Shown: piece after piece, positions 4,681 to 26,266 of the stretch | Numbering within the stretch: position 1 is the stretch's first letter | Layout: each line of letters starts with the position of its first letter | Source: Acutalibacteraceae bacterium | GTDB taxonomy: Bacteria > Bacillota > Clostridia > Oscillospirales > Acutalibacteraceae | DNA: 64,000 bases | Direction: 5' to 3' | NCBI GenBank assembly: GCA_045656145.1 | Contig: JAZOQP010000037.1 | Span: forward strand, 13,257-77,256 | Translations under genes and position numbers: made by a program | Notes under the pieces: model-generated | Databases searched by the model: none | What the model saw: only the letters and a program-made list of their open reading frames with translations | Told to the model about the DNA's origin: nothing

Positions 4681-4691
4681 CAGCCTTTATT

Positions 4692-6999: not shown

Positions 7000-7035
7000 T
7001 TTGATCACCTGATTGCTAAAATTTTAACTATATTT

Positions 7036-10139: not shown

Positions 10140-11378
10140 TCAATGTTTTTGCGACTTAAATTCTAACATTTCGCCATTTTTTCTGTAAATATTCGGCGAA
10201 ACGCCATAAAGCGCTTTGAATTTATTCCTGAAGAAACTCTCATTATCATAACCCACAACCTTGATGATTTCCTGAACCGAAAATCTTGTTCCCAAAAGCA
10301 TCTTGGCTGCAAGCTCGCAGCGCTTTTCCTGAAGGAGTTTTATAAAGGAAATTCCAAGCGTTGTTTTTATAAGCTCCCCTGTGTAAACCTCGCTATAGCC
10401 TAAAAATTTAGATAATTCCTTAATATTAGCCGACTGAATATTGTTTTCAATATATTCATTAACCTTTCTCTGCAAGCGGAGAGTGCGGTCATTCTCCTCG
10501 GAAACACATTCCTCTAATGCATTTATATTTGCAATTACCTGCTTTTCAGAGGGAATTTCGGTTATTCTTGCATTCGTTGCCGCGGCGGAAGAATAGCGAA
10601 GGGTAAGATTTATTGGCCTCTCCCTTGATATATTTGAAATGAAATAACCAACAAAGGCCTCGGCGCAAATCCTTGGAGCATTTTGAGAAAAGGTAAAAGA
10701 TGGTTGAAAAATTGTTTCATTCTTTGCAATATACAAATACCCGCTGCTATCAAAATTAATCACAACGCGCAGATTAGGATATTTAGATTTAAAAAATTTA
10801 ACTATATCATCCTTTTCGCTCAGGTCATACATCGCCTTTACCTGCTGCCTGCTTAGGAAAAGATAATCGGCCTTTTCAAAATATTGCGGATTTTTTCCTA
10901 GCGCAAAATAAAACACCTTAACGCCCTTTAGTTTTGCGCGATCGATTAAATATTTGAAATTGCTGAGCGAATTATCAACAATTATGTAATCGGCTTGAGA
11001 AAGGCGAGCTAAAACTGTATCTATAAATTCCTTGCTGATTTCACTTGCCACACCCGAAGAAAAAAACCTTTTAATATTGCCTAAATTATCCTTAAAGTTC
11101 ATGTGATAAGCAGTGCTTCCCTCAACCATTCTTATATAGGTTGTGTCGACGCCTATGGAAGAAAGCTTTTGAGATAAAATTTGCCCATCATTTCCAATAT
11201 AACCCGCATGATAAATATGAGAAGCTCCCGAGCGCGCAAGCGCCAAGGAAATGCCATAGCCTCTTCCGCCGGGAGTTACATTTGAAGAAGAAATGGGTAT
11301 GTTATTTTCAGAGAAATTTAAACTATTAACCGAAAAAATGCGCTCAATAAAAAGCGGTGCGAAATTAATAATTTTCAT
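10140..11378 (-). CDS. Fusion regulator: PfkB/ribokinase-like (probably catalytically dead) sensor domain + AraC/XylS HTH domain
   Basis: The N-terminus has the PfkB signature-1-like TPGGRGYGISLALARSGA...GYIGNDG. The signature-2 position reads RICAEAFVGYF instead of TGAGDAFVGAF. The C-terminal ~100 aa is a classic AraC HTH (GYSEVYTGELIK...FFRNKFKALYGVSPNIYR). Confidence 0.75.
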   Translation of the reverse strand: MKIINFAPLFIERIFSVNSLNFSENNIPISSSNVTPGGRGYGISLALARSGASHIYHAGYIGNDGQILSQKLSSIGVDTTYIRMVEGSTAYHMNFKDNLGNIKRFFSSGVASEISKEFIDTVLARLSQADYIIVDNSLSNFKYLIDRAKLKGVKVFYFALGKNPQYFEKADYLFLSRQQVKAMYDLSEKDDIVKFFKSKYPNLRVVINFDSSGYLYIAKNETIFQPSFTFSQNAPRICAEAFVGYFISNISRERPINLTLRYSSAAATNARITEIPSEKQVIANINALEECVSEENDRTLRLQRKVNEYIENNIQSANIKELSKFLGYSEVYTGELIKTTLGISFIKLLQEKRCELAAKMLLGTRFSVQEIIKVVGYDNESFFRNKFKALYGVSPNIYRKNGEMLEFKSQKH

Positions 11379-11826: not shown

Positions 11827-11859
11827 AAAAAAAGACTTGGGTTGCCCCAAGTCTTTTTT
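11827..11859. terminator. Rho-independent (bidirectional) terminator of the giant gene
   Basis: A7-AGACTTGGG-ttgc-CCCAAGTCT-T6, 7 nt after the stop codon at 11866. Confidence 0.85.
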
Positions 11860-11865
11860 AGTTAA

Positions 11866-14800
11866 TTATTTTGCGATTAAGATACCGCCAATTGCGATTT
11901 CGCCACCGCTTACAACTTCAACCTTAACTGTATGAGTACCATTCTTAAGGTTTTCAACGAGCGGTAATTCGCGACAGTCGCCACCCTTGAAGGTCTTTTC
12001 AACAGTTTCTTTGCCATCGATTGTGGCCTTGAAGGTAACTGTGCCGGGCGCATTCTCAAGGTTAGATAAGAATAAGCCTAAGGAGTTACCGGTGAAGGTG
12101 TAGGTAAATGAGCTGCCAGCAGAGCCGAAGAATTCTTCTTCAACGAATGTAGTGAAGGTGTTGTCCCTTACTTCGAAGCCATTTACGTTAGCAATTCTAT
12201 CAACTGTTACGATTTCGGTAAGAGTTGCCTGATTGCTTACGAGGTCGGTTGTGGGAACTTCATGCTTAACTAAACCTGCAGGAGCCTCAGCTGTGAGGAG
12301 AACATCAAGAGATTGAGCAACCTCAATAGCATAAATCTCATATGCATCAGCATTCGGATGAACGATATCCTCTGAATAATCGCTCCACTGCTTGCCTGTT
12401 TCAGCCATATCCTTAGCTAGAGCAGCACCTACATCGATAGTAGGAATGCCATAGTGCTCAGCAACAGCCTTGTGAGCAGCCTTGTTATCCCAATCAGCGC
12501 CACCAATATGGCCTTCATCAGTGATGAATACTATCACGATATCCATATAAGGATTAACTTCGCGAAGTTTCTTAATGATACCTTCCATATAGAGAGCAGA
12601 CTGAGTTTTGCTTAGACCTGCATAAACATCATTGATAGAGAACTCAACGAATACAAGGTCTAAATCGTTCTTAAGGAGCTGTTCGTTCATTCTGAAGAAG
12701 CCCCATGAAGAACCCGTGCCGCCCCAAGCAGCGTTGGTTTCGGTGATAAGAGAACCTGTAGCTGCAGCCTTTTCGGTAAGGTATGCAGTTGTGAGAGCTC
12801 TCCAAGATTGTGTAGATGCATCATCGGCACCTGTACCTGCGGTTACGGAACCGCCTAGGTAACCAACATTGATATTTTCGCCATTCTTGAGCTTATAGTT
12901 TGTATTGGCAAGATTATCAATTTCCTCTACACCGCCCCAGGTGCTGAGTGTACGCGCTGAAGCGTACACAGAGCCTGCGGTTGCTTTTGTTACAAGTGAA
13001 CCTGTCTTATCGAAGAGTTTTATGAACTGCTTGCCTTCGTAAGACTTGTTGTTTACAGTAAACTTCTCGTTGTTAGCTACAACATAGATGTTGTTTCTGA
13101 ACTCAGGCTCGCCGCCCTCGTTAGAAGCAGATACACCGAGTGCAGAGTTTACAGCGCTATCGAAAATGTTATTTTCAATTACGAATGTGCTATCGCCGTT
13201 TTCATCAAGAATGGTGTGGTTACCATAGGTGTTGCCGCCCTTGATGTGAGATGCAACGCCCTTATCAGGACGATATGCAAGACCCCACATTTCGTTATCG
13301 GCTGTACCACCTGCTCTTCTACAGATGTTATCTGAGAAGCTGATGTTCTGCATCTTAGCATAATCATAAGTTTCGATAGTTGCGCTATCCTCCATGTCAA
13401 CGCTCATAAAGTACTCGAAGTTATAAACGTTATCGGTAAGGAGGTTGTTGCTAATATTGATATCCTTATAAAGGATGTAATCGGTAGTGATATCTTCATA
13501 ACCACCGTTATTGCGACGAACATTGAACTGGAATGTTACAGCAGCATCGTATACCTGATAGATATAGCAGTTTTCAACTACCATATTTTCACAACCGCCC
13601 CAGATTTCGATACCGTTACCAAGACGAGTGTATGAACCGTGTGCGGAGCTGTTATATACACCTTCATCGCCCTGACGAGCGCCGCCGATCCAACCGATTT
13701 CAAGACCGTCAGCCTTGAAGTTCTGGTGTCCTGTGAAAGGATTGGTTGTGTTAGAAGCATCGACATGAGCTTCTGATACGGAAATACCGAAGTTACCATA
13801 TCTAATTTCAAGGTTCTGGAATGAGATGTTGCTCATAGAGTCATCGCAATCGAATGAGTTGCCTGTGTTGGGCTGTGCATAAAGCACTGCGCCGGAATTC
13901 TGAATTTCAACATGAGCGAAATCAGTTAAGTTCTTGCCCTCAGGTAAGAGAACATAAACCATTTTGTTATTGTAATCGAAGAAGAAGTCGTAAGCCTCAA
14001 CCATATCGTCGAGTGAAGCATCATAACGATAGTTTTCTTCTGCCTTGAACCACTTCTTATCAGCAGCGATTACATTCTGCTCAGCCTCATCTTCTACGAA
14101 GAAGATGGAACCGAAGTCTAACTTAGTAGCGCCCCAAAGTTCGCTATTTGTAAGGTTGATGCTCCAGAGTTCAGTTCCTTCAGGAGCTGTGAACTTATCT
14201 AAGCGGAGACCTGCCTGCTTAGTATCGTTAGCATCAATCTGGAAGTAATCAATCTTCTGAGCACTAATTCTTGAATCGGTAAGAGCATCCCAAGAACCGT
14301 AAACCTTCGGCTTAGCGCCTGTGCCGTAAGCACCGATTGAAATGTCTTTACCCATCAATACGCTCTCACGGAAGGTGTCGCCACGCTTAAGAAGAATTGC
14401 AACAGTCTTGCTCGGGTTGTTATCCTTATAGGTCTTAGCCTTGCTCATAGCGTAATTTAAGGTCTTATAAGGACTAGACTTAGTACCTGCATAGTATGAG
14501 TCAGCACCGCTGTTTGATACATAGTAAACCTTATTGGCAGTAAGTGTATCAGGATTGTTCTTAATCTTCTCATACATCTCAGCCTCAGCTAAATCGATAG
14601 CCTGAGTATCGTTAGAAGGCTTGAAGGTGTTTGCATTTGAAGTGTTATAAACAATTGTACCGTCCTTAGTTTCAAATACGGTAGTTGCGGTGAAGAATTC
14701 ATTGCCCCATGTAGCCCAATCGAAGTTGGTTACATTAACTGTAATGAAGTACTTAGAGATATCGGCGAATGAGGTTGGGTCGTAAACAACTGTGCCCTGT

Positions 14801-17800
14801 TCACCGGTAATCTTCTTGTAAACTGTATCGGTTGTAAAGCCTGCAACCTTGCCATCGCTTCTTTCAAGTGTGAAGCCTACGCGGTTGTACTTAGTTGTAT
14901 CAACGGTAGATACAAGGCGGAGGTCGAAGGAGTTATCCTTACGCTGCTTTCCATTTACAACTCTTTCAAATGTATCAGCCGGGTCAGTAATCTGCCACTT
15001 AACTGAGAATACTTCATTTGAAACGAACTTAGCATAAGCCTTGCCCGATTTAACAGAAGGATCAAGAGTTTCGGTGCAGTTAGCATCGGTGTACCAACCT
15101 GCGAATACCTTGCCATAAGGTGCATCCGGTGCGGTGTAGGGTTCGCCACGATACTTAGAAATATCTTCGAATTCCTGAACCTTAACGCTGTTGTTATCGG
15201 CCTTGAACTGATCATAGTAAGCAAGTTCTGCATCGGTAAATGTAATCTGAACTTCAACGAAATCGTAAGAAATCATTGCAAGTGCGCCACCACCGAAGCC
15301 GATTGTACCGCCTTCAGAAATTAACGAATCATCTACTCTGTTAATATCATAAGCTACATCCTTAGAAGCGCCGTCTGCAGTAGAGATATTAGCGCCGGAA
15401 GGTGAATGAGTGATGGTTATTGCATCAGAGTAATCAGCCTTAGAAGCATAGGTAATAGAACCGTTTTCAGCACCCGATACAGTATAGGTTGCATACCAAC
15501 CCTGGAACTGTGTGGGAGCGAAGTTCTCGCCTGCAGGAGTTGTGATGTTACGTATCTCGCGGATATATCCGTTAGAGTTATTGTTCTTGTTAACACGTAC
15601 CCATGTTGCAGGTGCACCGGAGTTACCAACACGAACCATCTGGTTAAAGTTGTTACCAATGGTGCCATCTTCATTAATCTTTAATCTTGTGTAGTTGTAA
15701 TAGAAGTTAGCATTGTTGGCCTGCGGGATTAGGTAGGTATTTAAGGTGATATCCGAGAACTTGGATAACTTAATACCTGAAGCAGAATCAGGTCTTACAT
15801 ACATTGCCCAACCTGTGCTGTTACCATTAGTAGCGGTCATACCACGCATAACGTAACCATCAGCAGAAATAGACTTGTTGAAACCAAGCTTAATTTCGCT
15901 ATCGGCATAGCCTGAAGATAACGACTTACCATACCATTCACTAGCATCGGTAAATACATAGTTGCCATCAGCTGCAATCTCAAGGTCGTTGAGAGAGAAC
16001 TTATGATAGTAAATAGTGTATTCGCCCTTAGAATCGGCAATAGTAATGTAAATGTTTACGCTGTTACCGAGGGAATCGGTAGCGGTTAAGGTTGCATAAC
16101 CTGAAGAGTAAGCAATAACTGCTCTATCAACAGTATCAAGAACAACATAAGCGTTTTCATCAGATAATGACCAAGTAGCAGTTGCGCCATCGATTAACAC
16201 GCCGTTATCAGCGGTTAATGTAAGGAGCTTAAGGTCAAGAGTCTGACCAACATTCATCGGGATAGCAGGTTTAGTGCTATCGATGATGTTAACCTTTACA
16301 GAATTATTCTTAATGTTCTGCTTTAAGGTTTCATCAATAGTGATGATTGCCTTGAAGTTAGAAACGTTGATATTTCTTGCATCAGAATCAGTATAGAAAC
16401 CTGCTGTACCGCCCTTCTGAAGAGCCTTAGGAATCGGATAGCCTGAAAGATCTTTATAAGATGTGCGAACATCGGTTGGGTCAGCATGGCTTACTGTCTT
16501 AAAGCTAACAGCTGCGTTTGCACCATTAACTGTTGTGCGATAGGTGTATGTCTGACCTTCATTGTTAATGATGAAATCATTACCATTCTGGTCTTTAAGC
16601 ATAATGTGTCTATCGCTATCCTGACGAACACCTGAATAGAAGAGTCTCATCCAGGAAGCATTGTTCGGAGCAGCACTATTTGATGCATACGGGAATACAC
16701 CGAAGAATAGACCTGAATCGGTTGAATCGTAAGCATCATTATCGCCGAGGTCAACTCTTAAGATTGAACCAAAGAGTCTTCCAACAACACCGTTTACAAC
16801 GCCTGTAAATTCGGTTGTAATATCGGCAAATCTTGAAATCATCTTGCCTGAAGCAGAGTCTTCTCTTAGATAGAATGCAGCAGCAGATGCAGCATTACCA
16901 TAAATACCATGTGCATTAATTGTGAGGGAACTTGAGAAGGTTGTTGCCCATTCGCTTTCCTCAGTGAATGCGCCGCCTGATAAATCAAGGCCTGAGAAGG
17001 TATGGTCATAGATTACATATTCGCCGTTTTCATCAGCTGTTACAAGATAATAATCAGCTGAAAGATCACCATTAGAAACAGTAAGTGTTGCAACACCTTC
17101 GCCAAGCATTGTAACGGTCTTAGTAACGTTATCAACAGAAGCGAGAGAGTTGTTAACCGAGAAGGTTAAATCGCTGCCCTTGCCTAAGATACCATTTTCG
17201 TTAAGCTCGAAATAGATATTTGTAAGGTCAAGCTTGTAGTTAACCTCCATAGGCATTGCGGGAGCTGAATACTTCATTGTGTATACGCCCTGAAGCTTAG
17301 TTGAGTTCTTCTCAACAAGAGCCTTCTGAGCCTCGGTAGGAGTAATGTAAGCGCGGATAGCTCTTACACCACCACGGCACTGGTTATCAATGTGGAAACC
17401 AATTGTACCGGCATCGGTTTCGGTGAGAGCTGCATTTTGCGCATCGGTAAGAGTGAATACTGCAGTGTTGAGTTCACCTGCAGGTTCTTTACCCTGAAGT
17501 GTAGCAGTAACGGTGTTACCGATTACAGAAAGGGTTTGTGTGCTAACTGCTGGTTTGTTGTTATTATTACTTGGATTATAGAACTTAAAGTTCTGCGGAA
17601 CAGTAGGAACTGTCATACCATCATCAGGTCTTACATACTCTAAGTTTTTAGTAGAAATATCAAGGGTAAAAGCAGTGTTATCGCCGCCACCCTGGATTCT
17701 CCAGAGAGAAGCTACACGGTTTACAGGAATAGTTCTAATCTCCTCATAAGCGCCGGTATCATAGTCGTAATTATAACCATATTTACCAGACCAAGGAGTA

Positions 17801-20800
17801 TCGTAACCATCGTACTGCCATTCATTATCGCCATACCAATCAAATATTTCTGGATCTCCATTGGATTCGAATGCAAGCTCGCCATCGCCATCTAAATCCA
17901 TATAATCAATAGGATTAATCTGTAAACGAGCAATAGGACCAACAGAGCCACGGCCTGATGAACCATAAGTAGTAGTTGATACAGCATCAGCCTCAACGAT
18001 AATATCACGGAAGGAGGTTACCAACTTACCGCTTTCGCTATTAGGATCGAGGAAGATAGTACCTGCACCCCAGTCGCCAAGCCAGAAGCCTTCTGCATTA
18101 GCTAAATCTTCAGTATACATGGCAACTATAGCTTTGTGGGATTCACTCCAACGAACGTTACTGTAAGAAGGACGAGATTCATCATAAACAGCATCGGACA
18201 TCCATTCACTATCCTTAGTGAAGAAGTATTCGCCGTAGCCGTTATACTCAAAGTCTTCAGATGAGAATTCTTTGTTGTAAATCTCAATCTTAGTATCTTT
18301 TTCTAATGCATAAACATAGAAGGTTGCGGTGTAATCGCCTGCAGTAGCAGTGATCGGATATAAATAGTCAGCTGTGAAGAGAGTGATGGTCTTATCGTTA
18401 TCACTAACAACAACGCCACCCTTTTCGCCTTCATAAGACCAAGTGATGTTCTTACCCTGAACAGCCTTGCCACCATCGAACTCGAAATAGAGCTCTTTGA
18501 GGTTAAGCACGGTGTTAACGCTCATCGGTAAAGCAGGATTGTTTGCAGGGATAACGCTGATATTTTCAGCAGTTGCCTTTAATTTAGCGAATAAATCGGT
18601 ATCGATATCAATTGTTACCTTGAAGTACTTAATATAAGCACGACCGATATTGTAAGAATACCAACCAACTGTACCTGCACCGGTTACAGCGCGAGCAGCA
18701 GCTACCTTAGAAGGATCAGAAGTGGTATCTTCGCTTAACTGGTAAACCTTGGTGTAATTTGCATCATCTCTATTCTTCTGCCAAACAGTTAAGTCATTGC
18801 CCTTGAAGGTCATCTTAGTGTTAACAGAGAATGTGCTCGGATTGTAACCAAAGCTTGAAGCACCGGCATAAGCATTGCCGCCGGAATAAATTATGGATGA
18901 ATTTGAGCTTGAGTAGAATAAGCCTTGAATACCTAAATAGGTATCGTTCTTATTGCTTAGAACACTACCCTTAACATTATATCTACCATAAATGTTGTAG
19001 TAAGTATCGTATCTGTCGCCCCATGAAAGCTGCAAGCTTGTTGCCTGAGTTTCAATGGTGTAATCAGCGAAGTTTGATACTAGCTTGCCATAAGCAGAAT
19101 CGGGGTTAAGTAATGCATAAGTATTGGTGTTGCCTGCAGAAAGGGAGATACCCTTCGAAGAATCATATGCAATTGAAGCATTACCTGATTCATTATATGC
19201 AATCCATGTGTCATTCTCACCGAAGTAGGTGGGAGTACCGGCCGCAATACCACTCTTTGTATCGGAAGATGAGAAGATATAGTTCATAAGAACATGCTGA
19301 TTATTTTCATCAGGTGTAATTACATATAATGTCTTCTCTTCGCCGCCGAATGAAGCGGTGATATCATATCTGCCTGCGGCAAATAATGTAATAGTATCGG
19401 TATCGTTATCAACTACAACTGAGTTATTGTTAGATGACCACTCAATAGAAGCACCTGAGAATACCTTGCCTGAATTGAATTCAAAGAAGATATCAGAAAC
19501 GCTAATCTTGGTTCCTGCTTCCATCGGGATAACAGGGTTGCCAGACTTAACAATTGTTAAATCAGAATTGATTTCGGGCTTCGAGAAGGTAGCAATTTCT
19601 TCATCAGTAAACTGAATTGTTACCTTAATATCTTTGAATACTAAACGAGTGTTATAGTCAGAAAGAGAGAGAGTACCAGCCTTGGTATCGCCAATCTTAG
19701 AAACCTGAGTATCATTTAATGTGATAGGAGCCTTAGCGCCATTCTTATAGATTTCAATGTTATCGCCAATAAGGCTTACTCTATAAGAATAGAATGTGTT
19801 TACAGCTGTATTCTTAGTGTCGTAGGTATAGAGGTTTTCAGTGCCTGAAACATTAAGTCTTGCCCAGTCAACACTCTGGCCACCCATACCGTTAAATCCA
19901 CCACCTGCATAGGTAGTAGCACCGGTAAGAGTTTCATTGTTTTCCCAGTTCATACGACCTACAAGTGAGAAGTCGTAAGATTTATCAGCAGCACCGAAGC
20001 TTGTTGAGAAAGCAATGTTAGCATCGATAATAACATCACGGAAAGATGATACTAATTTACCTGCATCACTAGAGGGCTTTAATACATAGCCGCAATAGAG
20101 GGCACCACCTGTTTGAACACCGCCGATAGAGTTCCAAGCTAAGTCGCCGGCACCGGAAACAAGTGTCCAATCACTATCAGCTACAAAGTTCTTAGTTGAA
20201 GTATCAACATCAGCCTCGGAGAAAGCGTGATAGTAGATTTCTCTTTGGTTATTAGAATCGGGTTCTAAAACATAGAATATCTTTTCTTCGCCATTAAATT
20301 CAGCGGTTACGGTGTAGATATCGCTGCCTAGAAGAGCAATAGCCTTATCAGCATCGGCTACCATTACACCGCCTGTTGTGTCTGTAGTAGACCAGGTAAT
20401 GTTCTTACCAAGAGCTACAGCGCCTGAATCGAAAGCAAAGAAGATATCAGAAACGTTAACCTTTTTACCAATAGTCATCGGAATAGCGGGCTTGGAAGCC
20501 GGAACGATAACTAGATCGGTTGTGATTGCGGGGTTAGAGAATTTAGCAATTTCTTCTTCTGTAAAGGAAATGCTTACCTTAATATACTGCATGTAAGCAC
20601 GACCGATATTGTAAGAATACCAACCAACTGTACCTGCACCGGTTACGCCGCGAGCAGCTGCTAACTTGGAAGCATCAGACTTGGTGTCTTCATTCATTTC
20701 ATATACCTTTGTATATTCAGAAGCACCCTTATTCTTCTGCCATGCAGTTAAATTGCTGCCCTCAACCTTAACCTTGGTATCAATAGCGTTGATAGCAGGA

Positions 20801-23800
20801 TCATATCCAAATCCTGAGCCTGCAGATAGTTTGCCGTTATTGCTATACTCAGCATAACCATAAGCAGTGGAGCAGAAGCAGCCTGCGAAACCTAAATAGG
20901 TATCATTAGCGGTGTTAATCTTCTCTCCTGCCATGTTATATCTGAGATAGTAAGTAAAGGTAGAATCTGAACGCTCATTCCAGTTAGGAGTCCAGTTAGA
21001 AGCGGAAGATTCAATTGTATAATCAGCAAAGCTTGATACTAGCTGACCATACGGAGATTCGGGGTTTAATAATGCATAAGAGTTAGTGTTTGCTGCAGAA
21101 AGGGATAAGCCCTTAGAAGCATCGAATGCGAATGAAGAAGCACTTGCAGAATAAGCTATCCATGTGTCGTCCTTACCAAAATAGGTAGGTGTGTCAGCAG
21201 GAATGCCTGTTAGAACATCATCTGCTGAGAAGGTATAGTTCATAAGAACATACTCATTGCTGCTATCGGGTTCTAATACATAGAATGTAGCTACATCATC
21301 GCCTAAAGTCGCGGTTAAAGGAAGAATGCTATTTGAAAGTAAAGCAATGGTCTTTTCGGTATCTTCAACGATAAGACCGCCTGTTTCATCGGTTGTAGAC
21401 CAAGTAATATTCTTACCAAGAGCTACCTTGCCTGAGGGGAACTGGAAGTAAATATCAGAGATATTAATCTTCTTACCAACAGTCATAGGAATAGCGGGTT
21501 TAGTGTTAGATACAACGAAGAGTTCGCTTGAAGCATCCTTAATAGCTTTAACAAGGTCTTCAGCAAATGCGATAGAAACCTTAGCATAGCCTAAAGGAGC
21601 GCGGTAGTTTTGACCTGAGAAAATACCAATTGTACCGCCCTTAGTATTGTTAAGAGCTTCCTGCTGGTCAGCAGTTAAATCCTGAGTTGTTTCAACAAAG
21701 CCTGCGCCTGTGTTGATGAAGGTTCTCATCGAGTTACCGATTAATTCAACCTTAACGGTTGAGAAAGCCTTCTGAGGAATGGTTAAGCCGAGGTCGGTAG
21801 AAGGACCGCCTACACCGTTTACCGAGTAAGAAATGTCGGTGTACTGGTTATACTGGTTAGAGCCTTCATTATTGGTTCTTGTGTAAGTAACTATTACATA
21901 AGACTCTCTGCCATCGGCAACGGTGTTATTAACAAAGTTTACTCTTGCAAGAGGACCTGCTATTTCGTTACCGCTCCAGTTAAAGTTACTGGGAAGAGCA
22001 TAGTTTACTTCAACGATTACGTTGCTAAACTGTGATACTAATTTACCACTTTCAGAATCGGGTCTTAAATAGAAGTAATCGGAAATGTTACCATAGTTAC
22101 CAATACCTGTTACACCATTATAAGATGTGCCGAGAGCGGATGCATCGGTATGGGTCCATTCGCTTTCTTCGGTGAACTGACCATCAACAAGGTCATTTTC
22201 AGAGAAGGTGTGGCTATAGATAACCTTTGTGTTATCGGCATCGGGCTCTAGAACATAGAAGTCCTTCTTCTCGCCCTTATATTCAGCTGTAATGGTGTAG
22301 ATGCCTGAAGCTGTTAATAAAACAGTTGTGCCCTCCACTGCAACTGCGCCGGAAGTATCAGCTGTTGACCAAGTAATATCCTTACCTGAAGCCACAAGGC
22401 CTGAATCAAAACCGAAGTAGATGTTTGATAAATCAGCCGTGGTCTTAGCAGCCATAGGAATAGCAGGGCTATCGGCTGAAACTAAAACTATATCAGAAAT
22501 GAGGTGATCATAAGCTGAAAGTTCATCAGCTGTGAACACTAATGTTACCTTAATATCTTTAAATACAAGACGGGTGTTATAGTCGGAAAGTGAAATGGTA
22601 CCGGTCTTGGTATCGCCTATCTTAGCCAACTGGTCATCACTTAAGGTGATGGGAGCTTCAACGCCATTCTTAGCAATCTTAATATCGTTGCCAATAAGGC
22701 TTACTCTGTAGCTATAGAAGGTATTGGTTGTTGTGTTCTTAGTATCATAAGTATAGAGGTTTTCAGTGCCTGAAACATTAAGTCTTGCCCAGTCAACAGT
22801 TTGACCGCCCGCACCGTTGAAGCCACCGCCTGCATAGGTGCTACCGTTAACACGACCAACGAGTGAGAAGTCAAAGGTCTTATCAGCTGCACCGAAGTTA
22901 GTTGAGAAGGCAATGTTTGCATCAATAATAACATCGCGGAAGGATGATACTAATTTACCAGCTTCGCTTTCGGGCTTTAATTGATAGCCGCAGTATAAAG
23001 CATTACCTGTCTGAACACCGCCGATAGAGTTCCAAGCTAAATTGCCTGCACCGCTAGTAAGTGTCCAAGCGCTATCGGCAACGAAATCGCCTGTAGCTGT
23101 ATCAACTTCTGACTCAGAGAATGCATGATAGTAAAGTTCTTTTGTTCCATCAGAATTGGGTTCAATAATATAAATTGTCTTAGGAGCATCAGCCTTTGCA
23201 TAAGCTGCGGTAATTTTATAGATACCGGGGGCGAACATTGTAACAGTTTTTGCTGTGTTATCAACTGCAACGCCTGTTTCCTCAGTAGACCAGGTGATGT
23301 CTGCACCGCGAGCTACTGCTCCGTTATCAAATTCAAAATAGATAGAGGATAAGTCAAGTTTCTTACCTGCTGTTAGAGGAATAGCAGGCTTGGAGGCTTC
23401 AACTATTAAAAGGTCGGATAAATATGCATCCATTACAGCGGCCTCTGCAGTAAGGTCGATAGTAACGGTAATAGATTTATTGTATTGACGAGACTGCTCG
23501 GCATTATCAATAGCAATAGTACCCTTAAGGTTAGCAATATCTTCGCCTTCACGAGCAACGCCATCATAAAGAACGGTGTATTCGCTCTGAGTTGCTAGCT
23601 TGATAGCATAAGTAATATTGTTACCATTAAAGGTTACTCTTACATTATTATCGGCTGTTGCGGTAGCAAAGGTCTTATCAGAAATCACTGTTCCCTCTCC
23701 GCCTGATACAACTGTAGAAAATGAAGTATAAGTAAAGTTGTTACCACCGGGGAGCTGAACACCTGCAAACTTTTCATCCTTAAGAACGAAGTTGTTTGAG

Positions 23801-24669
23801 GTTCCGTTATAGGTAGCGTTGATAAGAGAATACTTACCTAAAAGATAGAAATATCTTGAATTGGATGTTGCAGCATATCTGCCTGAATAGGTAAAGTCGA
23901 TAGTATAGTCTGCAAAAGCAGAAACTAATTTACCGCCCTTGGTTTCAGGCTTAAGATACATATAAGCTGCAGCATTGGTTGCAATACCAAGACCCTTGCC
24001 ATCTGTATATGTCCAGCTATTCTGTTGGGTAATCCAGTCAGGATTGGTATAGGTGAACTCTACGCCATCAGCTGTTGTATATGTTTTACCATAATACTTA
24101 GCATGAGCAGTATTGAACAATGCCCAATCGCTTGCAGGGTTACCTGCTACGTGAGTACTCTTATGAGCCGATAATGAACTGCTTGTTTCATCATTCGGGT
24201 TAGTAGACGGAGTATAGTTTACGCCATCAATAACCAAAGGCTCAATAGTTTTTAAATCATCAGCAGAGAAAGTGTAGTCATAAATAACTGCGCTACCGTT
24301 TGCTGCCGGTTCAATTATGTAAATAGTTTTTGTTTCGCCGTTTGCTGTGGCTTCGATAGCATAGATATCGGAACCTGCTACATCAACGGTCTTAGCGGTA
24401 TCATCAACACGTACACCGCCTGAAGTATCGGTTGTTGACCATGTGATATTAGCGCCGTTATAGGTGTCTCCACCAAACTGCACGTCAATCTTAGTAAGGT
24501 CGATAACCGTGCCCTGCTTTGCAGGAATTACGGGCTTATTGTTAACCACTGTGTAAACTGCAGCGTCAGCAAAAGCCGTGAAAGCTACTGAAAGCATTGA
24601 AACAAGCATTGCCACTGCAAGCAATACTGATAATGCTTTTTTGGTAACTCTCTTAATCGAGTTGTTCAT
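11866..24669 (-). CDS. Giant (4,267 aa) secreted modular protein: signal peptide, 9 x [Big_2-like Ig + LamG/DUF1080-like lectin fold], Flg_new-like repeat, beta-sandwich, right-handed beta-helix, SGNH/GDSL esterase, C-terminal beta-sandwich
   Basis: A single uninterrupted ORF with AGGAGG 8 nt before the ATG. The signal peptide is KKALSVLLAVAMLVSMLSVAFTAFA-DA. Nine modules open with a K-P-A-I-P-M..G....S.IYF.F......G..ITWST motif. See the sub-features below for the catalytic domains. Confidence 0.9.
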   Translation of the reverse strand: MNNSIKRVTKKALSVLLAVAMLVSMLSVAFTAFADAAVYTVVNNKPVIPAKQGTVIDLTKIDVQFGGDTYNGANITWSTTDTSGGVRVDDTAKTVDVAGSDIYAIEATANGETKTIYIIEPAANGSAVIYDYTFSADDLKTIEPLVIDGVNYTPSTNPNDETSSSLSAHKSTHVAGNPASDWALFNTAHAKYYGKTYTTADGVEFTYTNPDWITQQNSWTYTDGKGLGIATNAAAYMYLKPETKGGKLVSAFADYTIDFTYSGRYAATSNSRYFYLLGKYSLINATYNGTSNNFVLKDEKFAGVQLPGGNNFTYTSFSTVVSGGEGTVISDKTFATATADNNVRVTFNGNNITYAIKLATQSEYTVLYDGVAREGEDIANLKGTIAIDNAEQSRQYNKSITVTIDLTAEAAVMDAYLSDLLIVEASKPAIPLTAGKKLDLSSIYFEFDNGAVARGADITWSTEETGVAVDNTAKTVTMFAPGIYKITAAYAKADAPKTIYIIEPNSDGTKELYYHAFSESEVDTATGDFVADSAWTLTSGAGNLAWNSIGGVQTGNALYCGYQLKPESEAGKLVSSFRDVIIDANIAFSTNFGAADKTFDFSLVGRVNGSTYAGGGFNGAGGQTVDWARLNVSGTENLYTYDTKNTTTNTFYSYRVSLIGNDIKIAKNGVEAPITLSDDQLAKIGDTKTGTISLSDYNTRLVFKDIKVTLVFTADELSAYDHLISDIVLVSADSPAIPMAAKTTADLSNIYFGFDSGLVASGKDITWSTADTSGAVAVEGTTVLLTASGIYTITAEYKGEKKDFYVLEPDADNTKVIYSHTFSENDLVDGQFTEESEWTHTDASALGTSYNGVTGIGNYGNISDYFYLRPDSESGKLVSQFSNVIVEVNYALPSNFNWSGNEIAGPLARVNFVNNTVADGRESYVIVTYTRTNNEGSNQYNQYTDISYSVNGVGGPSTDLGLTIPQKAFSTVKVELIGNSMRTFINTGAGFVETTQDLTADQQEALNNTKGGTIGIFSGQNYRAPLGYAKVSIAFAEDLVKAIKDASSELFVVSNTKPAIPMTVGKKINISDIYFQFPSGKVALGKNITWSTTDETGGLIVEDTEKTIALLSNSILPLTATLGDDVATFYVLEPDSSNEYVLMNYTFSADDVLTGIPADTPTYFGKDDTWIAYSASASSFAFDASKGLSLSAANTNSYALLNPESPYGQLVSSFADYTIESSASNWTPNWNERSDSTFTYYLRYNMAGEKINTANDTYLGFAGCFCSTAYGYAEYSNNGKLSAGSGFGYDPAINAIDTKVKVEGSNLTAWQKNKGASEYTKVYEMNEDTKSDASKLAAARGVTGAGTVGWYSYNIGRAYMQYIKVSISFTEEEIAKFSNPAITTDLVIVPASKPAIPMTIGKKVNVSDIFFAFDSGAVALGKNITWSTTDTTGGVMVADADKAIALLGSDIYTVTAEFNGEEKIFYVLEPDSNNQREIYYHAFSEADVDTSTKNFVADSDWTLVSGAGDLAWNSIGGVQTGGALYCGYVLKPSSDAGKLVSSFRDVIIDANIAFSTSFGAADKSYDFSLVGRMNWENNETLTGATTYAGGGFNGMGGQSVDWARLNVSGTENLYTYDTKNTAVNTFYSYRVSLIGDNIEIYKNGAKAPITLNDTQVSKIGDTKAGTLSLSDYNTRLVFKDIKVTIQFTDEEIATFSKPEINSDLTIVKSGNPVIPMEAGTKISVSDIFFEFNSGKVFSGASIEWSSNNNSVVVDNDTDTITLFAAGRYDITASFGGEEKTLYVITPDENNQHVLMNYIFSSSDTKSGIAAGTPTYFGENDTWIAYNESGNASIAYDSSKGISLSAGNTNTYALLNPDSAYGKLVSNFADYTIETQATSLQLSWGDRYDTYYNIYGRYNVKGSVLSNKNDTYLGIQGLFYSSSNSSIIYSGGNAYAGASSFGYNPSTFSVNTKMTFKGNDLTVWQKNRDDANYTKVYQLSEDTTSDPSKVAAARAVTGAGTVGWYSYNIGRAYIKYFKVTIDIDTDLFAKLKATAENISVIPANNPALPMSVNTVLNLKELYFEFDGGKAVQGKNITWSYEGEKGGVVVSDNDKTITLFTADYLYPITATAGDYTATFYVYALEKDTKIEIYNKEFSSEDFEYNGYGEYFFTKDSEWMSDAVYDESRPSYSNVRWSESHKAIVAMYTEDLANAEGFWLGDWGAGTIFLDPNSESGKLVTSFRDIIVEADAVSTTTYGSSGRGSVGPIARLQINPIDYMDLDGDGELAFESNGDPEIFDWYGDNEWQYDGYDTPWSGKYGYNYDYDTGAYEEIRTIPVNRVASLWRIQGGGDNTAFTLDISTKNLEYVRPDDGMTVPTVPQNFKFYNPSNNNNKPAVSTQTLSVIGNTVTATLQGKEPAGELNTAVFTLTDAQNAALTETDAGTIGFHIDNQCRGGVRAIRAYITPTEAQKALVEKNSTKLQGVYTMKYSAPAMPMEVNYKLDLTNIYFELNENGILGKGSDLTFSVNNSLASVDNVTKTVTMLGEGVATLTVSNGDLSADYYLVTADENGEYVIYDHTFSGLDLSGGAFTEESEWATTFSSSLTINAHGIYGNAASAAAFYLREDSASGKMISRFADITTEFTGVVNGVVGRLFGSILRVDLGDNDAYDSTDSGLFFGVFPYASNSAAPNNASWMRLFYSGVRQDSDRHIMLKDQNGNDFIINNEGQTYTYRTTVNGANAAVSFKTVSHADPTDVRTSYKDLSGYPIPKALQKGGTAGFYTDSDARNINVSNFKAIITIDETLKQNIKNNSVKVNIIDSTKPAIPMNVGQTLDLKLLTLTADNGVLIDGATATWSLSDENAYVVLDTVDRAVIAYSSGYATLTATDSLGNSVNIYITIADSKGEYTIYYHKFSLNDLEIAADGNYVFTDASEWYGKSLSSGYADSEIKLGFNKSISADGYVMRGMTATNGNSTGWAMYVRPDSASGIKLSKFSDITLNTYLIPQANNANFYYNYTRLKINEDGTIGNNFNQMVRVGNSGAPATWVRVNKNNNSNGYIREIRNITTPAGENFAPTQFQGWYATYTVSGAENGSITYASKADYSDAITITHSPSGANISTADGASKDVAYDINRVDDSLISEGGTIGFGGGALAMISYDFVEVQITFTDAELAYYDQFKADNNSVKVQEFEDISKYRGEPYTAPDAPYGKVFAGWYTDANCTETLDPSVKSGKAYAKFVSNEVFSVKWQITDPADTFERVVNGKQRKDNSFDLRLVSTVDTTKYNRVGFTLERSDGKVAGFTTDTVYKKITGEQGTVVYDPTSFADISKYFITVNVTNFDWATWGNEFFTATTVFETKDGTIVYNTSNANTFKPSNDTQAIDLAEAEMYEKIKNNPDTLTANKVYYVSNSGADSYYAGTKSSPYKTLNYAMSKAKTYKDNNPSKTVAILLKRGDTFRESVLMGKDISIGAYGTGAKPKVYGSWDALTDSRISAQKIDYFQIDANDTKQAGLRLDKFTAPEGTELWSINLTNSELWGATKLDFGSIFFVEDEAEQNVIAADKKWFKAEENYRYDASLDDMVEAYDFFFDYNNKMVYVLLPEGKNLTDFAHVEIQNSGAVLYAQPNTGNSFDCDDSMSNISFQNLEIRYGNFGISVSEAHVDASNTTNPFTGHQNFKADGLEIGWIGGARQGDEGVYNSSAHGSYTRLGNGIEIWGGCENMVVENCYIYQVYDAAVTFQFNVRRNNGGYEDITTDYILYKDINISNNLLTDNVYNFEYFMSVDMEDSATIETYDYAKMQNISFSDNICRRAGGTADNEMWGLAYRPDKGVASHIKGGNTYGNHTILDENGDSTFVIENNIFDSAVNSALGVSASNEGGEPEFRNNIYVVANNEKFTVNNKSYEGKQFIKLFDKTGSLVTKATAGSVYASARTLSTWGGVEEIDNLANTNYKLKNGENINVGYLGGSVTAGTGADDASTQSWRALTTAYLTEKAAATGSLITETNAAWGGTGSSWGFFRMNEQLLKNDLDLVFVEFSINDVYAGLSKTQSALYMEGIIKKLREVNPYMDIVIVFITDEGHIGGADWDNKAAHKAVAEHYGIPTIDVGAALAKDMAETGKQWSDYSEDIVHPNADAYEIYAIEVAQSLDVLLTAEAPAGLVKHEVPTTDLVSNQATLTEIVTVDRIANVNGFEVRDNTFTTFVEEEFFGSAGSSFTYTFTGNSLGLFLSNLENAPGTVTFKATIDGKETVEKTFKGGDCRELPLVENLKNGTHTVKVEVVSGGEIAIGGILIAK
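12300..12880 (-). other. SGNH/GDSL-type hydrolase (esterase) domain of the giant protein
   Basis: Block I is VGYLGGSVTAGTG (Ser nucleophile), block II AAWGGTGS, block III VFVEFSINDV and block V DIVHPN (Asp/His). The order and spacing are typical of SGNH carbohydrate esterases. Confidence 0.75.
12950..14530 (-). other. Right-handed parallel beta-helix (pectate-lyase-fold) domain of the giant protein
   Basis: It starts VYYVSNSGADSYYAGTKSSPYKTLNYAMSKAK...ILLKRGDTFRES...GAYGTGAKPKVYGS. Later coils read NLEIRYGNFGISV, GIEIWGGCENMVVENCYIYQVYDAAVTFQ, INISNNLLTDNVYNFEYF and IENNIFD. It is clearly paralogous to the two lipoproteins at 34796-37970. Confidence 0.75.
15035..15200 (-). other. Listeria-Bacteroides (Flg_new)-like repeat within the giant protein
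   Basis: YRGEPYTAPDAPYGKVFAGWYTDANCTETLDPSVKSGKAYAKFV matches the F.GWYTD....F......YAKW pattern of that repeat family. Confidence 0.55.
15235..24545 (-). repeat. Array of nine ~310-425-aa Ig+lectin-like modules inside the giant gene
   Basis: On the minus strand the modules begin near 24540, 23395, 22475, 21505, 20495, 19540, 18545, 17270 and 16275. Each ends with a G-T-[IV]-G.......[FIV].[VI]..[IF] strand pair like the C-terminus of DUF1080/LamG domains. Examples are GGTIGIFSGQNYRAPLGYAKVSIAF and AGTVGWYSYNIGRAYMQYIKVSISF. Confidence 0.75.
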
Positions 24670-24710: not shown

Positions 24711-24881
24711 TTAACCCCAAGGATTATTGGGATTGCCTGTGCCATCACCGAAGCCATCGCCTGAATCAACTTCGGTATCAATGCCGCCGCCATCAGGTTC
24801 CACTTTCAATGATGTTACGATAACATCTTCAGAAAGGAATTTTACTATTTCCAATTCCGGTGTTACGTACAAACTTTTCAT
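24711..24881 (-). CDS. 56-aa acidic, Gly/Asp-rich small protein co-transcribed with the giant gene
   Basis: ATG 24879-24881 follows GGAGGTAGAGG. The product is MKSLYVTPELEIVKFLSEDVIVTSLKVEPDGGGIDTEVDSGDGFGDGTGNPNNPWG. No terminator lies in the 41-nt gap before the giant gene's RBS. Confidence 0.65.
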   Translation of the reverse strand: MKSLYVTPELEIVKFLSEDVIVTSLKVEPDGGGIDTEVDSGDGFGDGTGNPNNPWG

Positions 24882-24918: not shown

Positions 24919-24947
24919 ATCATATCATACCCTATTTTACCTTGCAA
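24919..24947 (-). promoter_or_regulatory. Putative promoter of the small-peptide/giant-gene transcription unit
   Basis: Minus strand TTGCAA (24942-24947), 17 nt, TATGAT (24919-24924), about 35 nt upstream of the peptide ATG. Confidence 0.4.
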
Positions 24948-25086
24948 GCAATAGATTTTCTCTTTAATGTTTCCCCTTTTTTTAGTGCCTAAAAGCAGTA
25001 CTATTTTAAGGTTTCAAAAAATATAGTTTTAGACCTTTTAACAAAAACTGTAAACCCTTTTGATATTAATTATTGAAATAATGCAA

Positions 25087-25117
25087 AAGGCAGAGTGGCT
25101 TTACTCCACCCTGCCTT
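25087..25117 (-). terminator. Probable terminator of the poly-Asn gene
   Basis: AAGGCAGAGTGG-ctttact-CCACCCTGCCTT (11/12 bp), 20 nt after the stop codon. The minus-strand T tract is short (TTTT). Confidence 0.5.
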
Positions 25118-25136
25118 TATATTATATATGTATTAA

Positions 25137-26057
25137 TTATCCGTTTAATCCGCCCATACTGTTTCCGATGGAATCATTAACAGGCTCTTCTTCCTCTTGA
25201 CCGCCGCCCTGGTTTCCACCTTGGTTATCGCCGGTATTATCATTGTTATCGTCGTTGCTGTTGTCGTTGTTGTTATTGTCGTTGTTATCGTTGTTATCGT
25301 TGTTATCGTTACTATTATCGTTGTTATTGTTGTTATCGCTGTTATTGTTGTCGTTATTATTATTGTTGTTATCGTTGTTATTATTATCGTTGTTATTATT
25401 GTTATTATTGTCGTTATTGTTGTTATTATCGTTGCTATTATCGTTGTTATTGTCGTTATCGCTGTTATTATCGTTGCTATTATCGTTGTTATTGTTGTTA
25501 TCGCTGTTATTGTTGTCGTTATTGTTGTTATTATTGTTGTTATTATCGTTGTTATTATTGTTGTTATTATTGTTGTTGTTATTATTGTTGTTGTTATTAT
25601 TGTTGTTATTATTATTATTGTTATTGTTATTGTTATTATTATTATTGTTGTTATTATTGTTATTATTATTGTTATTGTTATTATTGTTATTATTGTTATT
25701 ATTGTTATTATTGTTGTTATTGTTGTCGTCATTATCAGAGAAAAGGTCATCGAAATCATTGCCCTGATTATTGCCGCCCAGATTATTACTTCCTTCTTCG
25801 CCGCCATCAATTATGCCATTGGAATTAGGCTTATTGCTTTCGGAATTACCGTTACCACTACCGCTGCCATCAGGAGTAGTGCTTTCTCCGCCGTTATTAT
25901 CGGGGAGCTCGGTACCGTTATCGGTGCCCTGCTCTATCTGAGAGTTACTACCCGCGGTTTCTCCCGCACCATTAGGGTTACATGTTGCAAGAATTATTGC
26001 AACGGCTAAAGCTACAACAACTATAGGAATTAAGATAAATAATGTCTTTTTATTCAT
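25137..26057 (-). CDS. Membrane-anchored (possibly lipoprotein) intrinsically disordered Asn/Asp/Gly/Ser-rich protein with ~59-residue homo-Asn tract
   Basis: AAGGTGGTG RBS. The N-terminus is MNKKTLFILIPIVVVALAVAIILATC. The rest is low complexity: NGAGETAGSNS..., then uninterrupted AAT/AAC codons at 25548-25724, then (D/S)N(n) repeats, ending GGNQGGGQEEEEPVNDSIGNSMGGLNG. Confidence 0.7.
   Translation of the reverse strand: MNKKTLFILIPIVVVALAVAIILATCNPNGAGETAGSNSQIEQGTDNGTELPDNNGGESTTPDGSGSGNGNSESNKPNSNGIIDGGEEGSNNLGGNNQGNDFDDLFSDNDDNNNNNNNNNNNNNNNNNNNNNNNNNNNNNNNNNNNNNNNNNNNNNNNNNNNNNNNNNNNDNNNNNNNNNDNNNSDNNNNNDNSNDNNSDNDNNNDNSNDNNNNNDNNNNNNNDNNNNDNNNNNNDNNNSDNNNNNDNSNDNNDNNDNNDNNNNDNSNDDNNDNTGDNQGGNQGGGQEEEEPVNDSIGNSMGGLNG
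25240..25735. repeat. Cryptic trinucleotide (AAY)n / (GAY-AAY) low-complexity tract
   Basis: The plus strand is almost exclusively (A/G)TT triplets with occasional ATC/GTC/GCT. It produces open frames in several phases on both strands. Confidence 0.9.
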
Positions 26058-26179: not shown

Positions 26180-26266
26180 GCCGCTGTGGTGGAATAGGCA
26201 GACACAAGGGACTTAAAATCCCTCGGGGGCGACTCCGTACCGGTTCAAGTCCGGTCAGCGGCACCA
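26180..26266 (+). tRNA. tRNA-Leu (anticodon UAA), class II with long variable arm, CCA encoded
   Basis: Acceptor stem GCCGCTG/CAGCGGC. Anticodon stem-loop AGGGA-CTTAAAA-TCCCT (anticodon TAA). Long variable arm, T-arm CCGGTTCAAGTCCGG, and 3' ACCA. Confidence 0.9.

Follow-up and report, generated by a model that had tools for sequence, protein, structure and literature searches.

A predicted 4,267-residue secreted protein of an Acutalibacteraceae bacterium with a nine-module Ig/jelly-roll array, a beta-helix and a CE17-like esterase

The locus and the giant gene

The 64,000-nucleotide stretch of DNA analyzed here (positions 13,257 to 77,256 of contig JAZOQP010000037.1, assembly GCA_045656145.1, from an Acutalibacteraceae bacterium; hereafter the window) contains on its minus strand a gene (11866..24669) that starts with ATG, is preceded at a distance of 8 nucleotides (nt) by the ribosome-binding site AGGAGG, and runs without interruption for 12.8 kb to encode a protein of 4,267 amino acids (aa), referred to below as the giant protein. 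Its calculated mass is 463.5 kDa and its calculated pI 4.5; its composition is high in T, A, G, S, N, and D, with just 11 Cys residues. From the N to the C terminus, we distinguish a signal peptide, an array of nine modules that each combine an immunoglobulin-like (Ig) domain with a jelly roll, and a C-terminal head made up of a linker domain (c1), a beta-helix, and an SGNH esterase with a terminal beta-sandwich. The features that frame the open reading frame (ORF) are as follows.

24568..24669, minus strand: Sec-type signal peptide (aa 1-34), with a KRVTKK n-region, a hydrophobic core, and the cleavage motif AFA/D
11828..11859, no strand assigned: 14-bp hairpin with A/T runs on both sides, directly past the giant-gene stop, resembling a bidirectional terminator

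The N-terminal signal (aa ~8-34) is the one strongly hydrophobic stretch in the protein, and the N terminus recurs in family members. A sequence scan found no LPXTG motif at the C terminus and no second hydrophobic segment, and the Pfam scan gave no match to SLH, dockerin, or CWB; taken together, the Pfam, motif, and hydrophobicity scans show none of the known Gram-positive anchors (LPXTG, SLH, dockerin, CWB, GW, or a C-terminal transmembrane [TM] helix). When the giant protein and its modules are compared with Pfam and NCBIfam, only SGNH and CE2_N score above threshold. A preliminary description of this DNA, made by reading the sequence, had proposed a single 12.8-kb ORF for 4,267 aa, a Sec signal peptide, and the lack of a recognizable anchor. 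The first is confirmed by the ORF itself, the ribosome-binding site, and syntenic orthologues in independent assemblies, the second by the sole hydrophobic segment and its AFA/D motif, and the third by the scans just given.

The best DNA repeats within the giant gene reach 79% identity, over stretches of up to 300 nt, and an artifact of repeat collapse or expansion, for which the preliminary description had wanted the gene checked, is therefore very unlikely. The broader idea that the ORF is either such an artifact or a decaying pseudogene is barely tenable: although public contigs very often stop within genes of this kind, and although the orthologue on contig L001 (3x coverage) carries an in-frame stop, the frame in the window is unbroken over 12.8 kb, the nine modules are all different, and intact orthologues of 3,280 and 2,470 aa are known. 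On L001, the single stop (L001:3934-4041) has led gene callers to split the gene into two. The full protein is also present, identical, in a public collection as a singleton.

The G+C (GC) fraction is 0.41-0.44 across the giant gene (window 12000..24000) versus 0.36-0.40 in the flanks, and the GC skew is ~0 versus about -0.15 in the flanks, with the neighboring genes on the same strand; the shift in both is probably an effect of amino-acid composition.

The C-terminal head: c1, beta-helix, and esterase

The head comprises four consecutive segments.

14602..15189, minus strand: c1 linker domain (aa 3161-3356), an FAGWY segment resembling the InlB B-repeat plus a beta-sandwich
13045..14601, minus strand: right-handed parallel beta-helix (aa 3357-3875), putatively glycan-cleaving, from AlphaFold2 (AF2), Foldseek, and profile results
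12280..12909, minus strand: SGNH esterase (aa 3921-4130), with S3941 (GGSVT), the Gly of WGGTGS (~3984), N4013 (SIND), and D4101 and H4104 (DIVHPN)
11869..12279, minus strand: C-terminal beta-sandwich, CE2_N-like (aa 4131-4267; Pfam CE2_N over aa 4179-4257, 4.5e-8)

The esterase belongs to the SGNH/GDSL group: Pfam Lipase_GDSL_2 (PF13472) matches aa 3938-4112 at 1.2e-19 (72 bits, versus a cutoff of 32.9), and blocks I, II, III, and V are all present with the Ser, the oxyanion Gly and Asn, and Asp-x-x-His (GGSVT at 3939, SIND at 4011, DIVHP at 4101). For the last 367 aa, the best Protein Data Bank (PDB) match is 6HFZ (RiCE17, 2.4e-12), in an alignment that covers the SGNH half only and in which all four SGNH blocks align. 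RiCE17, from Roseburia intestinalis (PDB 6HFZ/6HH9), is an acetyl-mannan esterase of carbohydrate esterase (CE) family 17, in which the SGNH domain is followed by a C-terminal CBM35 (CBM, carbohydrate-binding module) that clamps the substrate (PMC10154613). The two proteins have in common an unusual block I, LGGS(I/V)T, together with GGT.S, EFS(I/V)ND, and D..HPN, and the order of SGNH domain and sandwich matches CE17 and is the reverse of that in CE2. They differ in that RiCE17 is a free 378-aa enzyme, whereas here the unit makes up the C-terminal 9% of the 4,267-aa giant protein, and in that the terminal sandwich scores as CE2_N here and is a CBM35 in RiCE17; the specificity of RiCE17 for 2-O-acetyl-mannose is not transferable to the giant protein's esterase. 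Judged by these alignments, RiCE17 appears to be the closest relative among solved structures, and the prediction of esterase competence is well supported. The SGNH esterase with intact Ser/Asp/His and the terminal beta-sandwich, both named in the preliminary description, are thus borne out by Pfam, the motif blocks, and the RiCE17 alignment. Assignment to CE2 was considered and rejected, in that the CE2_N-like domain follows the SGNH domain instead of preceding it, and the triad Asp is present, whereas CE2 enzymes often have a Ser-His dyad.

AF2, supplied with 23 trimmed homologues, modeled aa 3151-3900 with a mean pLDDT of 85.4 and a pTM of 0.84; the first ~200 aa of the model (c1) are beta-rich and the remainder is a right-handed beta-helix. 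Foldseek matches the helix with probability 1.0 both to beta-helix enzymes in the PDB and to entries in BFVD (predicted viral protein structures), the latter being beta-helix tail proteins that resemble phage depolymerases. The best PDB folds are BT_1002 of glycoside hydrolase (GH) family 141 (5mqp, 6e-9), the GH120 enzyme XylC (3vst, 1e-8), and a K1 capsule lyase; the TM-scores to the beta-helix glycoside hydrolases are low (0.27-0.34), partly since the query is multi-domain. A profile of the beta-helix family run against PDB sequences found the GH136 lacto-N-biosidases (7v6m, 2e-15; 7v6i, 9e-11; 5gqc, 1e-7) and no match to GH141 or GH120 at E<=10, and so BT1002 (5MQP) and XylC (3VST), the closest folds, are not matched at the sequence level. 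The GH136 match runs mostly through an N-terminal cap motif that is common to 5GQC, 7V6I, 7V6M, and the giant protein (YYVS..G.D.NDG....P.KT......L..GD.VLL.RG..F....AYG.G.KP).

About 15 polar residues are invariant in 16 beta-helix homologues (R3429, D3518, E3588, N3619, R3682, N3685, D3708, T3712, Q3714, N3742, E3752, N3781, R3800, N3834, and N3860). D3708 and E3752 lie 44 residues apart, roughly one rung of the helix, and GH141 likewise has conserved acidic residues about one rung apart, its catalytic D523 and D564 being separated by 41 residues (PMC10154630); the similar spacing is suggestive of a glycoside-hydrolase-type cleft. In GH136 the catalytic pair is Asp-x6-Asp, D568/D575 in ErLnb136 (PMC7335108), and in the profile alignment to 5GQC, which is of low confidence in this region, the pair falls on non-conserved positions of the beta-helix family; the domain is not filed under GH136 for this reason. 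GH136 further has an LnbY-type helical partner (~220 aa), which is absent from the giant protein and its neighbors, and the 56-aa peptide encoded beside the giant gene is unrelated to LnbY in size and sequence. With GH136 membership rejected on these two counts, the beta-helix family would fall outside the classified families, distantly GH136-like in sequence and GH141/GH120-like in its modeled fold. A pectate-lyase-fold beta-helix had been proposed for this region: the right-handed helix, and with it a place in the pectate-lyase-fold superfamily, is supported by AF2 and Foldseek, but it is nearer to GH136, GH141, and GH120 than to pectate lyases.

Outside the giant protein, the beta-helix domain is found behind a lipoprotein signal (P0006), SLH (P0002, P0011), and dockerin (P0013), and the window itself encodes two stand-alone lipoprotein paralogues in tandem.

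34796..36394, minus strand: lipoprotein paralogue of the beta-helix with an LAAC lipobox; 29% identity to the head, 14 of the 15 invariant residues
36396..37970, minus strand: second, tandem lipoprotein paralogue; 31% identity to the head, 13 of the 15 invariant residues

Each of the two is ~530 aa long and without a Pfam match; their mutual identity is 74%. Because the domain sits behind lipid, SLH, and dockerin anchors and in two lipoproteins of the window, there is good evidence that it is an extracellular working domain displayed in several ways.

The c1 domain is mobile and is also found terminally in secreted S8 peptidases, NlpC/P60 proteins, and DUF4886 proteins; a scan of contigs with the C-terminal head returned relatives of c1 only, in metagenome-assembled genomes (MAGs) of Lachnospira, Ruminococcus, and Bacteroidaceae. 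The FAGWY motif, at aa 3189, had been read as a Listeria-Bacteroides-type repeat (FAGWYTD). The motif is there, and the family call rests on a weak profile match of this segment to the InlB B-repeat (E 0.03).

These same results bear on what the enzyme might act upon. A target in the bacterial envelope (the capsule of the cell itself or of a competitor, exopolysaccharide, or an O-acetylated wall polysaccharide) would make the giant protein a depolymerase for remodeling or antagonism, comparable to phage tailspikes that carry SGNH deacetylases. The likeness of the beta-helix to phage depolymerases, tailspikes, and K1 capsule lyase, the occurrence of c1 in NlpC/P60 wall hydrolases and S8 peptidases, and a neighborhood with no obvious plant-glycan utilization genes all fit such a target; however, the closest esterase is the dietary-mannan enzyme of CE17, no phage genes lie nearby, and other proteins with the same array stand in sugar-utilization loci (GH and ABC genes) or carry GH78/GH3 heads. 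We consider an envelope target unlikely.

The nine-module array and its relatives

The array makes up 73% of the giant protein. Module borders were set by motif anchoring and MAFFT alignment, with the nine modules beginning at aa 40, 422, 729, 1052, 1388, 1706, 2039, 2465, and 2795.

23407..24552, minus strand: module 1 (aa 40-421), Big_2-type Ig plus concanavalin A (ConA)-like jelly roll, with a ~70-aa insertion
22486..23406, minus strand: module 2 (aa 422-728), 69% identity with module 5
21517..22485, minus strand: module 3 (aa 729-1051), the one modeled; Ig pLDDT >93, whole-model pTM 0.82
20509..21516, minus strand: module 4 (aa 1052-1387), 50% identity with module 6
19555..20508, minus strand: module 5 (aa 1388-1705)
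18556..19554, minus strand: module 6 (aa 1706-2038)
17278..18555, minus strand: module 7 (aa 2039-2464), jelly roll with large insertions
16288..17277, minus strand: module 8 (aa 2465-2794)
15220..16287, minus strand: module 9 (aa 2795-3150)

Each module carries the Ig motif KPAIPM...ITWST, the jelly-roll motif GKLVS.F.D, and a terminal G-T-[IV]-G, and pairwise protein identities between modules range from 21 to 69%. The identities within the pairs 2/5 (69%) and 4/6 (50%) point to old duplications within the gene. In the DNA (window 18553..23403), the members of the two pairs are spaced ~2.9 kb and ~1.96 kb apart, respectively, with identities of 71-79%.

The Ig half is, by transitive profile matches, a homologue of Big_2 (PF02368): the module profile, through its positions ~10-90, matches P0040, P0052, and P0055 with E values from 5e-36 to 1e-26, these three are canonical Big_2 arrays (Pfam 1e-67 to 1e-107), and one member of the array family described below matches Big_2 at 4e-4; the giant protein itself has no direct Big_2 match in Pfam. 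For the jelly roll, module 3 was modeled with AF2 using the nine modules as the alignment; in the model, the jelly roll is less certain than the Ig domain. The pTM of this two-domain model suggests that the two halves of one unit may be held in a fixed arrangement. Searched against the PDB with Foldseek, the model had 223 matches at E<=1e-3, the top ones being ERGIC-53 and legume lectins (E 1e-7, probability 1.0, target-normalized TM-score 0.5-0.6, identity ~10%), and the 220-330-aa half of the module is therefore predicted to have a ConA-like lectin/glucanase fold. In terms of sequence, the module profile gave zero matches against PDB sequences, and PF06439 (DUF1080, alias 3-keto-disaccharide hydrolase) matched two of the nine modules below threshold (E 0.0015); the terminal G-T-[IV]-G...hydrophobic strand probably resembles the C terminus of DUF1080. 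The ConA-like beta-sandwich fold is thus common to these jelly rolls, to L-type and legume lectins, and to LamG/DUF1080 domains, while the sugar- and Ca-binding residues of the lectins are not mappable onto the jelly rolls. The nine modules with their motifs and the Big_2-like Ig domain were correctly recognized in the preliminary description (by motif anchoring and alignment, and by the module profile's matches, with E of 1e-26 to 1e-36, to canonical Big_2 arrays, respectively), and its LamG/DUF1080-like jelly roll holds at the level of fold, through AF2 and Foldseek, with the weak PF06439 match in two of nine modules beside it. Where all nine modules agree, the residue is P, G, S, T, Y, F, or W; because no polar residue is invariant, a catalytic role for the modules seems unlikely, and the alignment yields no binding site common to the nine.

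A word-indexed search for homologues with the module profile returned nothing, but an exhaustive profile search of 1.84 billion representatives did find relatives, with 270 clusters at E<=1e-3, 111 at E<=1e-10, and 33 at E<=1e-30. Many of these array-family proteins are 2,000-3,700 aa long and have from 2 to about 7 Ig plus jelly-roll modules; one cluster member with a source label is an "acetylxylan esterase" of a Ruminococcaceae/Oscillospiraceae MAG. In the family, the signal peptide and the N-terminal array are constant and the C termini vary. BspA-type LRR_5 repeats are present in 9 of the 21 members scanned, with a C-terminal TM helix and then an acidic tail in those whose tails were read; P0026 ends in GH3 plus a GH78 rhamnosidase; and other C termini are a metallophosphoesterase, AXE1, GDPD, ricin-B, MBG_2, or the beta-helix alone. 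In two array-family loci, an AraC regulator lies with GH42/GH39 genes or sugar ABC permeases are found. Wherever the family has an anchor, it is C-terminal. P0016, P0018, P0019, P0025, P0027, and P0031 run from BspA LRR_5 repeats through one TM helix into a cytoplasmic tail, which in P0025, P0027, and P0031 contains a long poly-Asp/Glu run (e.g., DDDDFDDDDF...), an unusual design for a C-terminal anchor. The image of a stalk with the enzyme head at its far end, as first proposed, is therefore not the likely geometry: because the N terminus is a cleavable signal and the anchors of paralogues with the same array are C-terminal TM helices, the array would, by analogy, be the distal, free end of the protein.

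Closer relatives were found with the head. A word-indexed search with the head alone gave 13 proteins, of which the best, P0001, is 41% identical over its full length. Its contig, L001, is syntenic with the window, with homologues of modules 7-9, the in-frame stop mentioned above, the head, and then genes for a PfkB/AraC regulator and an amidohydrolase. P0014 is an orthologue at 64% identity with 6 modules, in a locus (L005) that has the window's downstream genes, and P0017 (locus L006) is an orthologue at 38% identity with 4 modules; the orthologues at 64%, 41%, and 38% lie on independent assemblies with the same downstream genes. Since they carry 9 (window), 6, 4, and at least 3 modules, module number changes over evolutionary time. 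The head is more conserved than the array (70.5% versus 64% for P0014; 45.6% versus 37.8% for P0017).

The composition of the family raises the question of whether the giant protein is mainly an adhesin or surface fiber, with an array that attaches to host, plant, or microbial surfaces and with enzymes that are accessory, for example in local conditioning of the surface. The array's large share of the protein, and its combination in 9 of 21 scanned members with BspA-type LRR_5 repeats, a C-terminal TM anchor, and an acidic tail, are what one would see in such a case; nevertheless, the head is the best conserved part among the orthologues, its catalytic motifs are intact, and the giant protein has no anchor, which an adhesin needs. 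An adhesin is accordingly improbable in our judgment.

The contigs of five further loci (L010, L011, L012, L024, and L025) stop inside the giant gene. Genes of this kind routinely break metagenome assemblies: the contigs of most relatives end in this way, and counts of the array family from such assemblies are systematically too low, with its members cut short.

Partner genes, neighborhood, and proposed function

Immediately upstream of the giant gene lie two small genes with their expression signals.

24711..24881, minus strand: gene for an acidic peptide of 56 aa (MKSLYVTPELEIVKFLSEDVIVTS...), with its own ribosome-binding site, 41 nt 5' of the giant gene
24919..24947, minus strand: promoter-like site TTGCAA-17-TG-TATGAT, 5' of the peptide gene, a consensus match only
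25086..25118, minus strand: terminator-like hairpin past the lipoprotein gene, which divides this gene from the unit of peptide and giant gene
25137..26057, minus strand: gene for a poly-Asn lipoprotein of 306 aa, with a signal and ILATC lipobox, a low-complexity linker, and the C-terminal motif PVNDSIGNSMGGLN

Both partners recur beside the orthologues. L006 has a lipoprotein with the same ILATC N terminus, a linker rich in G, S, T, and N that is not poly-N, and the C-terminal motif PIVNDPVGNQMGALN in place of the window's PVNDSIGNSMGGLN, as well as a peptide that retains MKGLYIAPELEIIKF..DDVIVTS; L005 also has the acidic peptide gene. A profile search with the peptide gave seven small proteins, and in L010, L011/L012, and L024/L025 the order is lipoprotein, sometimes one extra gene, peptide, and giant gene, the last with the same signal peptide and Ig/jelly-roll modules and usually cut by the contig end. 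The coordinates in these loci are the following.

Peptide genes: L005:189-359; L006:1188-1322; L010:10001-10138; L011:10001-10147; L024:6624-6752
Lipoprotein genes: L006:531-911; L010:8764-9249; L011:8688-9152; L024:5248-5754

In each of the orthologous loci observed, the peptide (consensus MK.LY..PELEI[IV]KF...D[VI][IL].[TA][ST]; 42-56 aa, no signal peptide) is encoded directly 5' of the giant gene. In the lipoproteins the two ends are conserved, with an I[IV]LATC lipobox and ~15 C-terminal residues of the form KP[IV]..DP[IL]G..[MV]GALN, and the linker varies widely in length and composition across the 126-306 aa range. No Pfam or NCBIfam model matches either partner, and both are absent from the array-family loci with other heads (L007-L009). 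Judged by gene order, lipoprotein, peptide, and giant gene form a conserved three-gene cassette in at least five lineages. The link between the poly-Asn neighbor and the giant protein, raised as a possibility in the preliminary description, is thus upheld as conserved synteny; an anchoring role for the neighbor is an inference from it.

Distant relatives of the peptide (MK..Y..PELEI[IV]KF..EDVI.TS) occur in 11 metagenome loci (L013-L023, JGI/ENA contigs). Those examined have as neighbors further low-complexity lipoproteins and secreted proteins of the LRR_5, dockerin, or CBM6 kind, whereas an Ig/jelly-roll giant is absent from all 11; some lie near pairs resembling extracytoplasmic function (ECF) sigma and anti-sigma factors. 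In Ruminococcaceae-like bacteria, peptides of this family may accompany exoprotein genes in general. The Y..P.L motif of the peptide resembles the leaders of lasso peptides; with respect to the idea of a precursor of a ribosomally synthesized and post-translationally modified peptide (RiPP), no maturation genes were found nearby and there was no NCBIfam or Pfam match. A database copy of the 44-aa L006 peptide (P0184, 66 aa) reads two stop codons as Gln, which looks like a gene-calling artifact from an alternative genetic code.

On the other side, the giant gene is followed by a conserved neighbor.

10140..11378, minus strand: ribokinase-like domain with the PfkB sugar-kinase fold, fused to an AraC helix-turn-helix; also at L001:7763-8992 and L005:10585-11823

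An amidohydrolase gene comes next in the conserved order. The PfkB/AraC fusion is a candidate sugar-sensing regulator. The window further includes alaS, lon, groEL, and a cobalamin riboswitch, at a GC content of ~39%, and the cassette homologue L010 adjoins yabP, yabQ, divIC, and groES/EL. The sporulation genes beside L010, the dockerins and BspA repeats of relatives, and the one relative labeled Oscillospiraceae/Ruminococcaceae suggest an endospore-forming Clostridium, probably Oscillospiraceae/Ruminococcaceae-like, of gut or rumen. The riboswitch (4512..4695, minus strand) scores 85.6 bits; it lies upstream of small ORFs (3504..4389), and the ORFs on its other side (4711..7008) include an NMT1/phosphonate-binding-type protein. 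A tRNA-Leu(TAA) gene (26180..26266, plus strand, opposite to its neighbors) lies between the lipoprotein gene and an AIM24-family gene, flanked by a promoter-like site (26129-26157) and a terminator hairpin (26266-26299). A prophage origin was rejected on gene context, with no phage genes nearby.

We propose, with a probability of roughly 0.65, that the giant protein is a Sec-exported extracellular carbohydrate-active enzyme that combines a binding or spacer array with a beta-helix glycanase and a CE17-like esterase. After export and cleavage of the signal peptide, the N-terminal three quarters would be left free as a nine-unit array, a long, acidic, multivalent, and presumably non-catalytic device for reaching and binding or for spacing. 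The C-terminal quarter would be the working end, with the c1 linker, the beta-helix, and a two-domain esterase of SGNH domain and clamp sandwich; the esterase may strip the chain of obstructing O-acetyl groups, after which the beta-helix may cut the exposed polysaccharide. The giant gene would be co-transcribed with the small acidic peptide gene, with the lipoprotein gene alongside, and peptide and lipoprotein might conceivably hold the enzyme on the cell or aid its maturation. Candidates for retention are the lipoprotein (with a lipid anchor, a disordered linker that could span the wall, and a C-terminal docking motif), c1, or the array itself. The proposal is supported by the array-family relatives that carry GH3 plus GH78, AXE1, GDPD, or metallophosphoesterase heads or lie in loci with sugar genes. 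The substrate would most likely be a plant hemicellulose or pectin in acetylated form, with a polysaccharide of microbial surfaces as a further possibility.

Several observations weigh against this proposal. Residues 35-3920 are covered by no Pfam or NCBIfam model. The lack of an invariant polar residue in the jelly rolls suits a spacer as well as it suits lectins of differing specificity. The GH136 D-x6-D pair has no counterpart in the beta-helix, in an alignment that is unreliable there, and the domain may be a lyase or have a purely binding role. The immediate neighbors (the PfkB/AraC fusion, amidohydrolases, and the NMT1-type binding protein) do not make up a classical polysaccharide-utilization locus. 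Finally, conserved synteny is what suggests, weakly, that the lipoprotein tethers the enzyme. A bolder version, in which lipoprotein, peptide, and anchorless enzyme constitute a new three-part non-covalent system for surface display or maturation in Oscillospiraceae-like Clostridia, the beta-helix a new GH or lyase family, and the Big_2 plus ConA unit a new CBM family, is doubtful as a whole, although we would not rate it quite as low as the adhesin and the envelope target.

The literature searched holds no description of this protein architecture, and as far as that search goes, the combination and order of domains are undescribed, as first suggested. The general kind of protein is already known, namely a multimodular extracellular carbohydrate-active enzyme (CAZyme) of a Gram-positive degrader of fiber or glycans. 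It shares a signal peptide, beta-sandwich arrays, catalytic or LRR effectors, and AraC-linked loci with the multimodular CAZymes, and also the BspA-type surface proteins, known from Ruminococcaceae and Lachnospiraceae; unlike its relatives among them, which have dockerin, SLH, lipid, or C-terminal TM anchors, it has none, and unlike known multimodular CAZymes it is built on a unit of Big_2 and a 220-330-aa ConA-like domain for which there is no Pfam model and which is found in ~111 clusters (E<=1e-10). Neither the libraries nor the literature searched describes the repeating unit, the beta-helix family, an array of this kind fused to a CE17-like esterase, the absence of an anchor, or the lipoprotein and peptide partners.

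Pfam and NCBIfam leave more than 90% of the giant protein unseen; nevertheless, the protein belongs to a family that is coherent and consists of very large exoproteins from Clostridia of the gut and rumen. If defined, the Big_2 plus ConA unit, the beta-helix domain, and the CE17-like esterase would provide annotation handles for a class of fiber- or glycan-processing machinery in uncultured Oscillospiraceae. How Gram-positive cells may retain anchorless giant enzymes at their surface is a question for which the conserved lipoprotein and peptide partners provide a testable lead.

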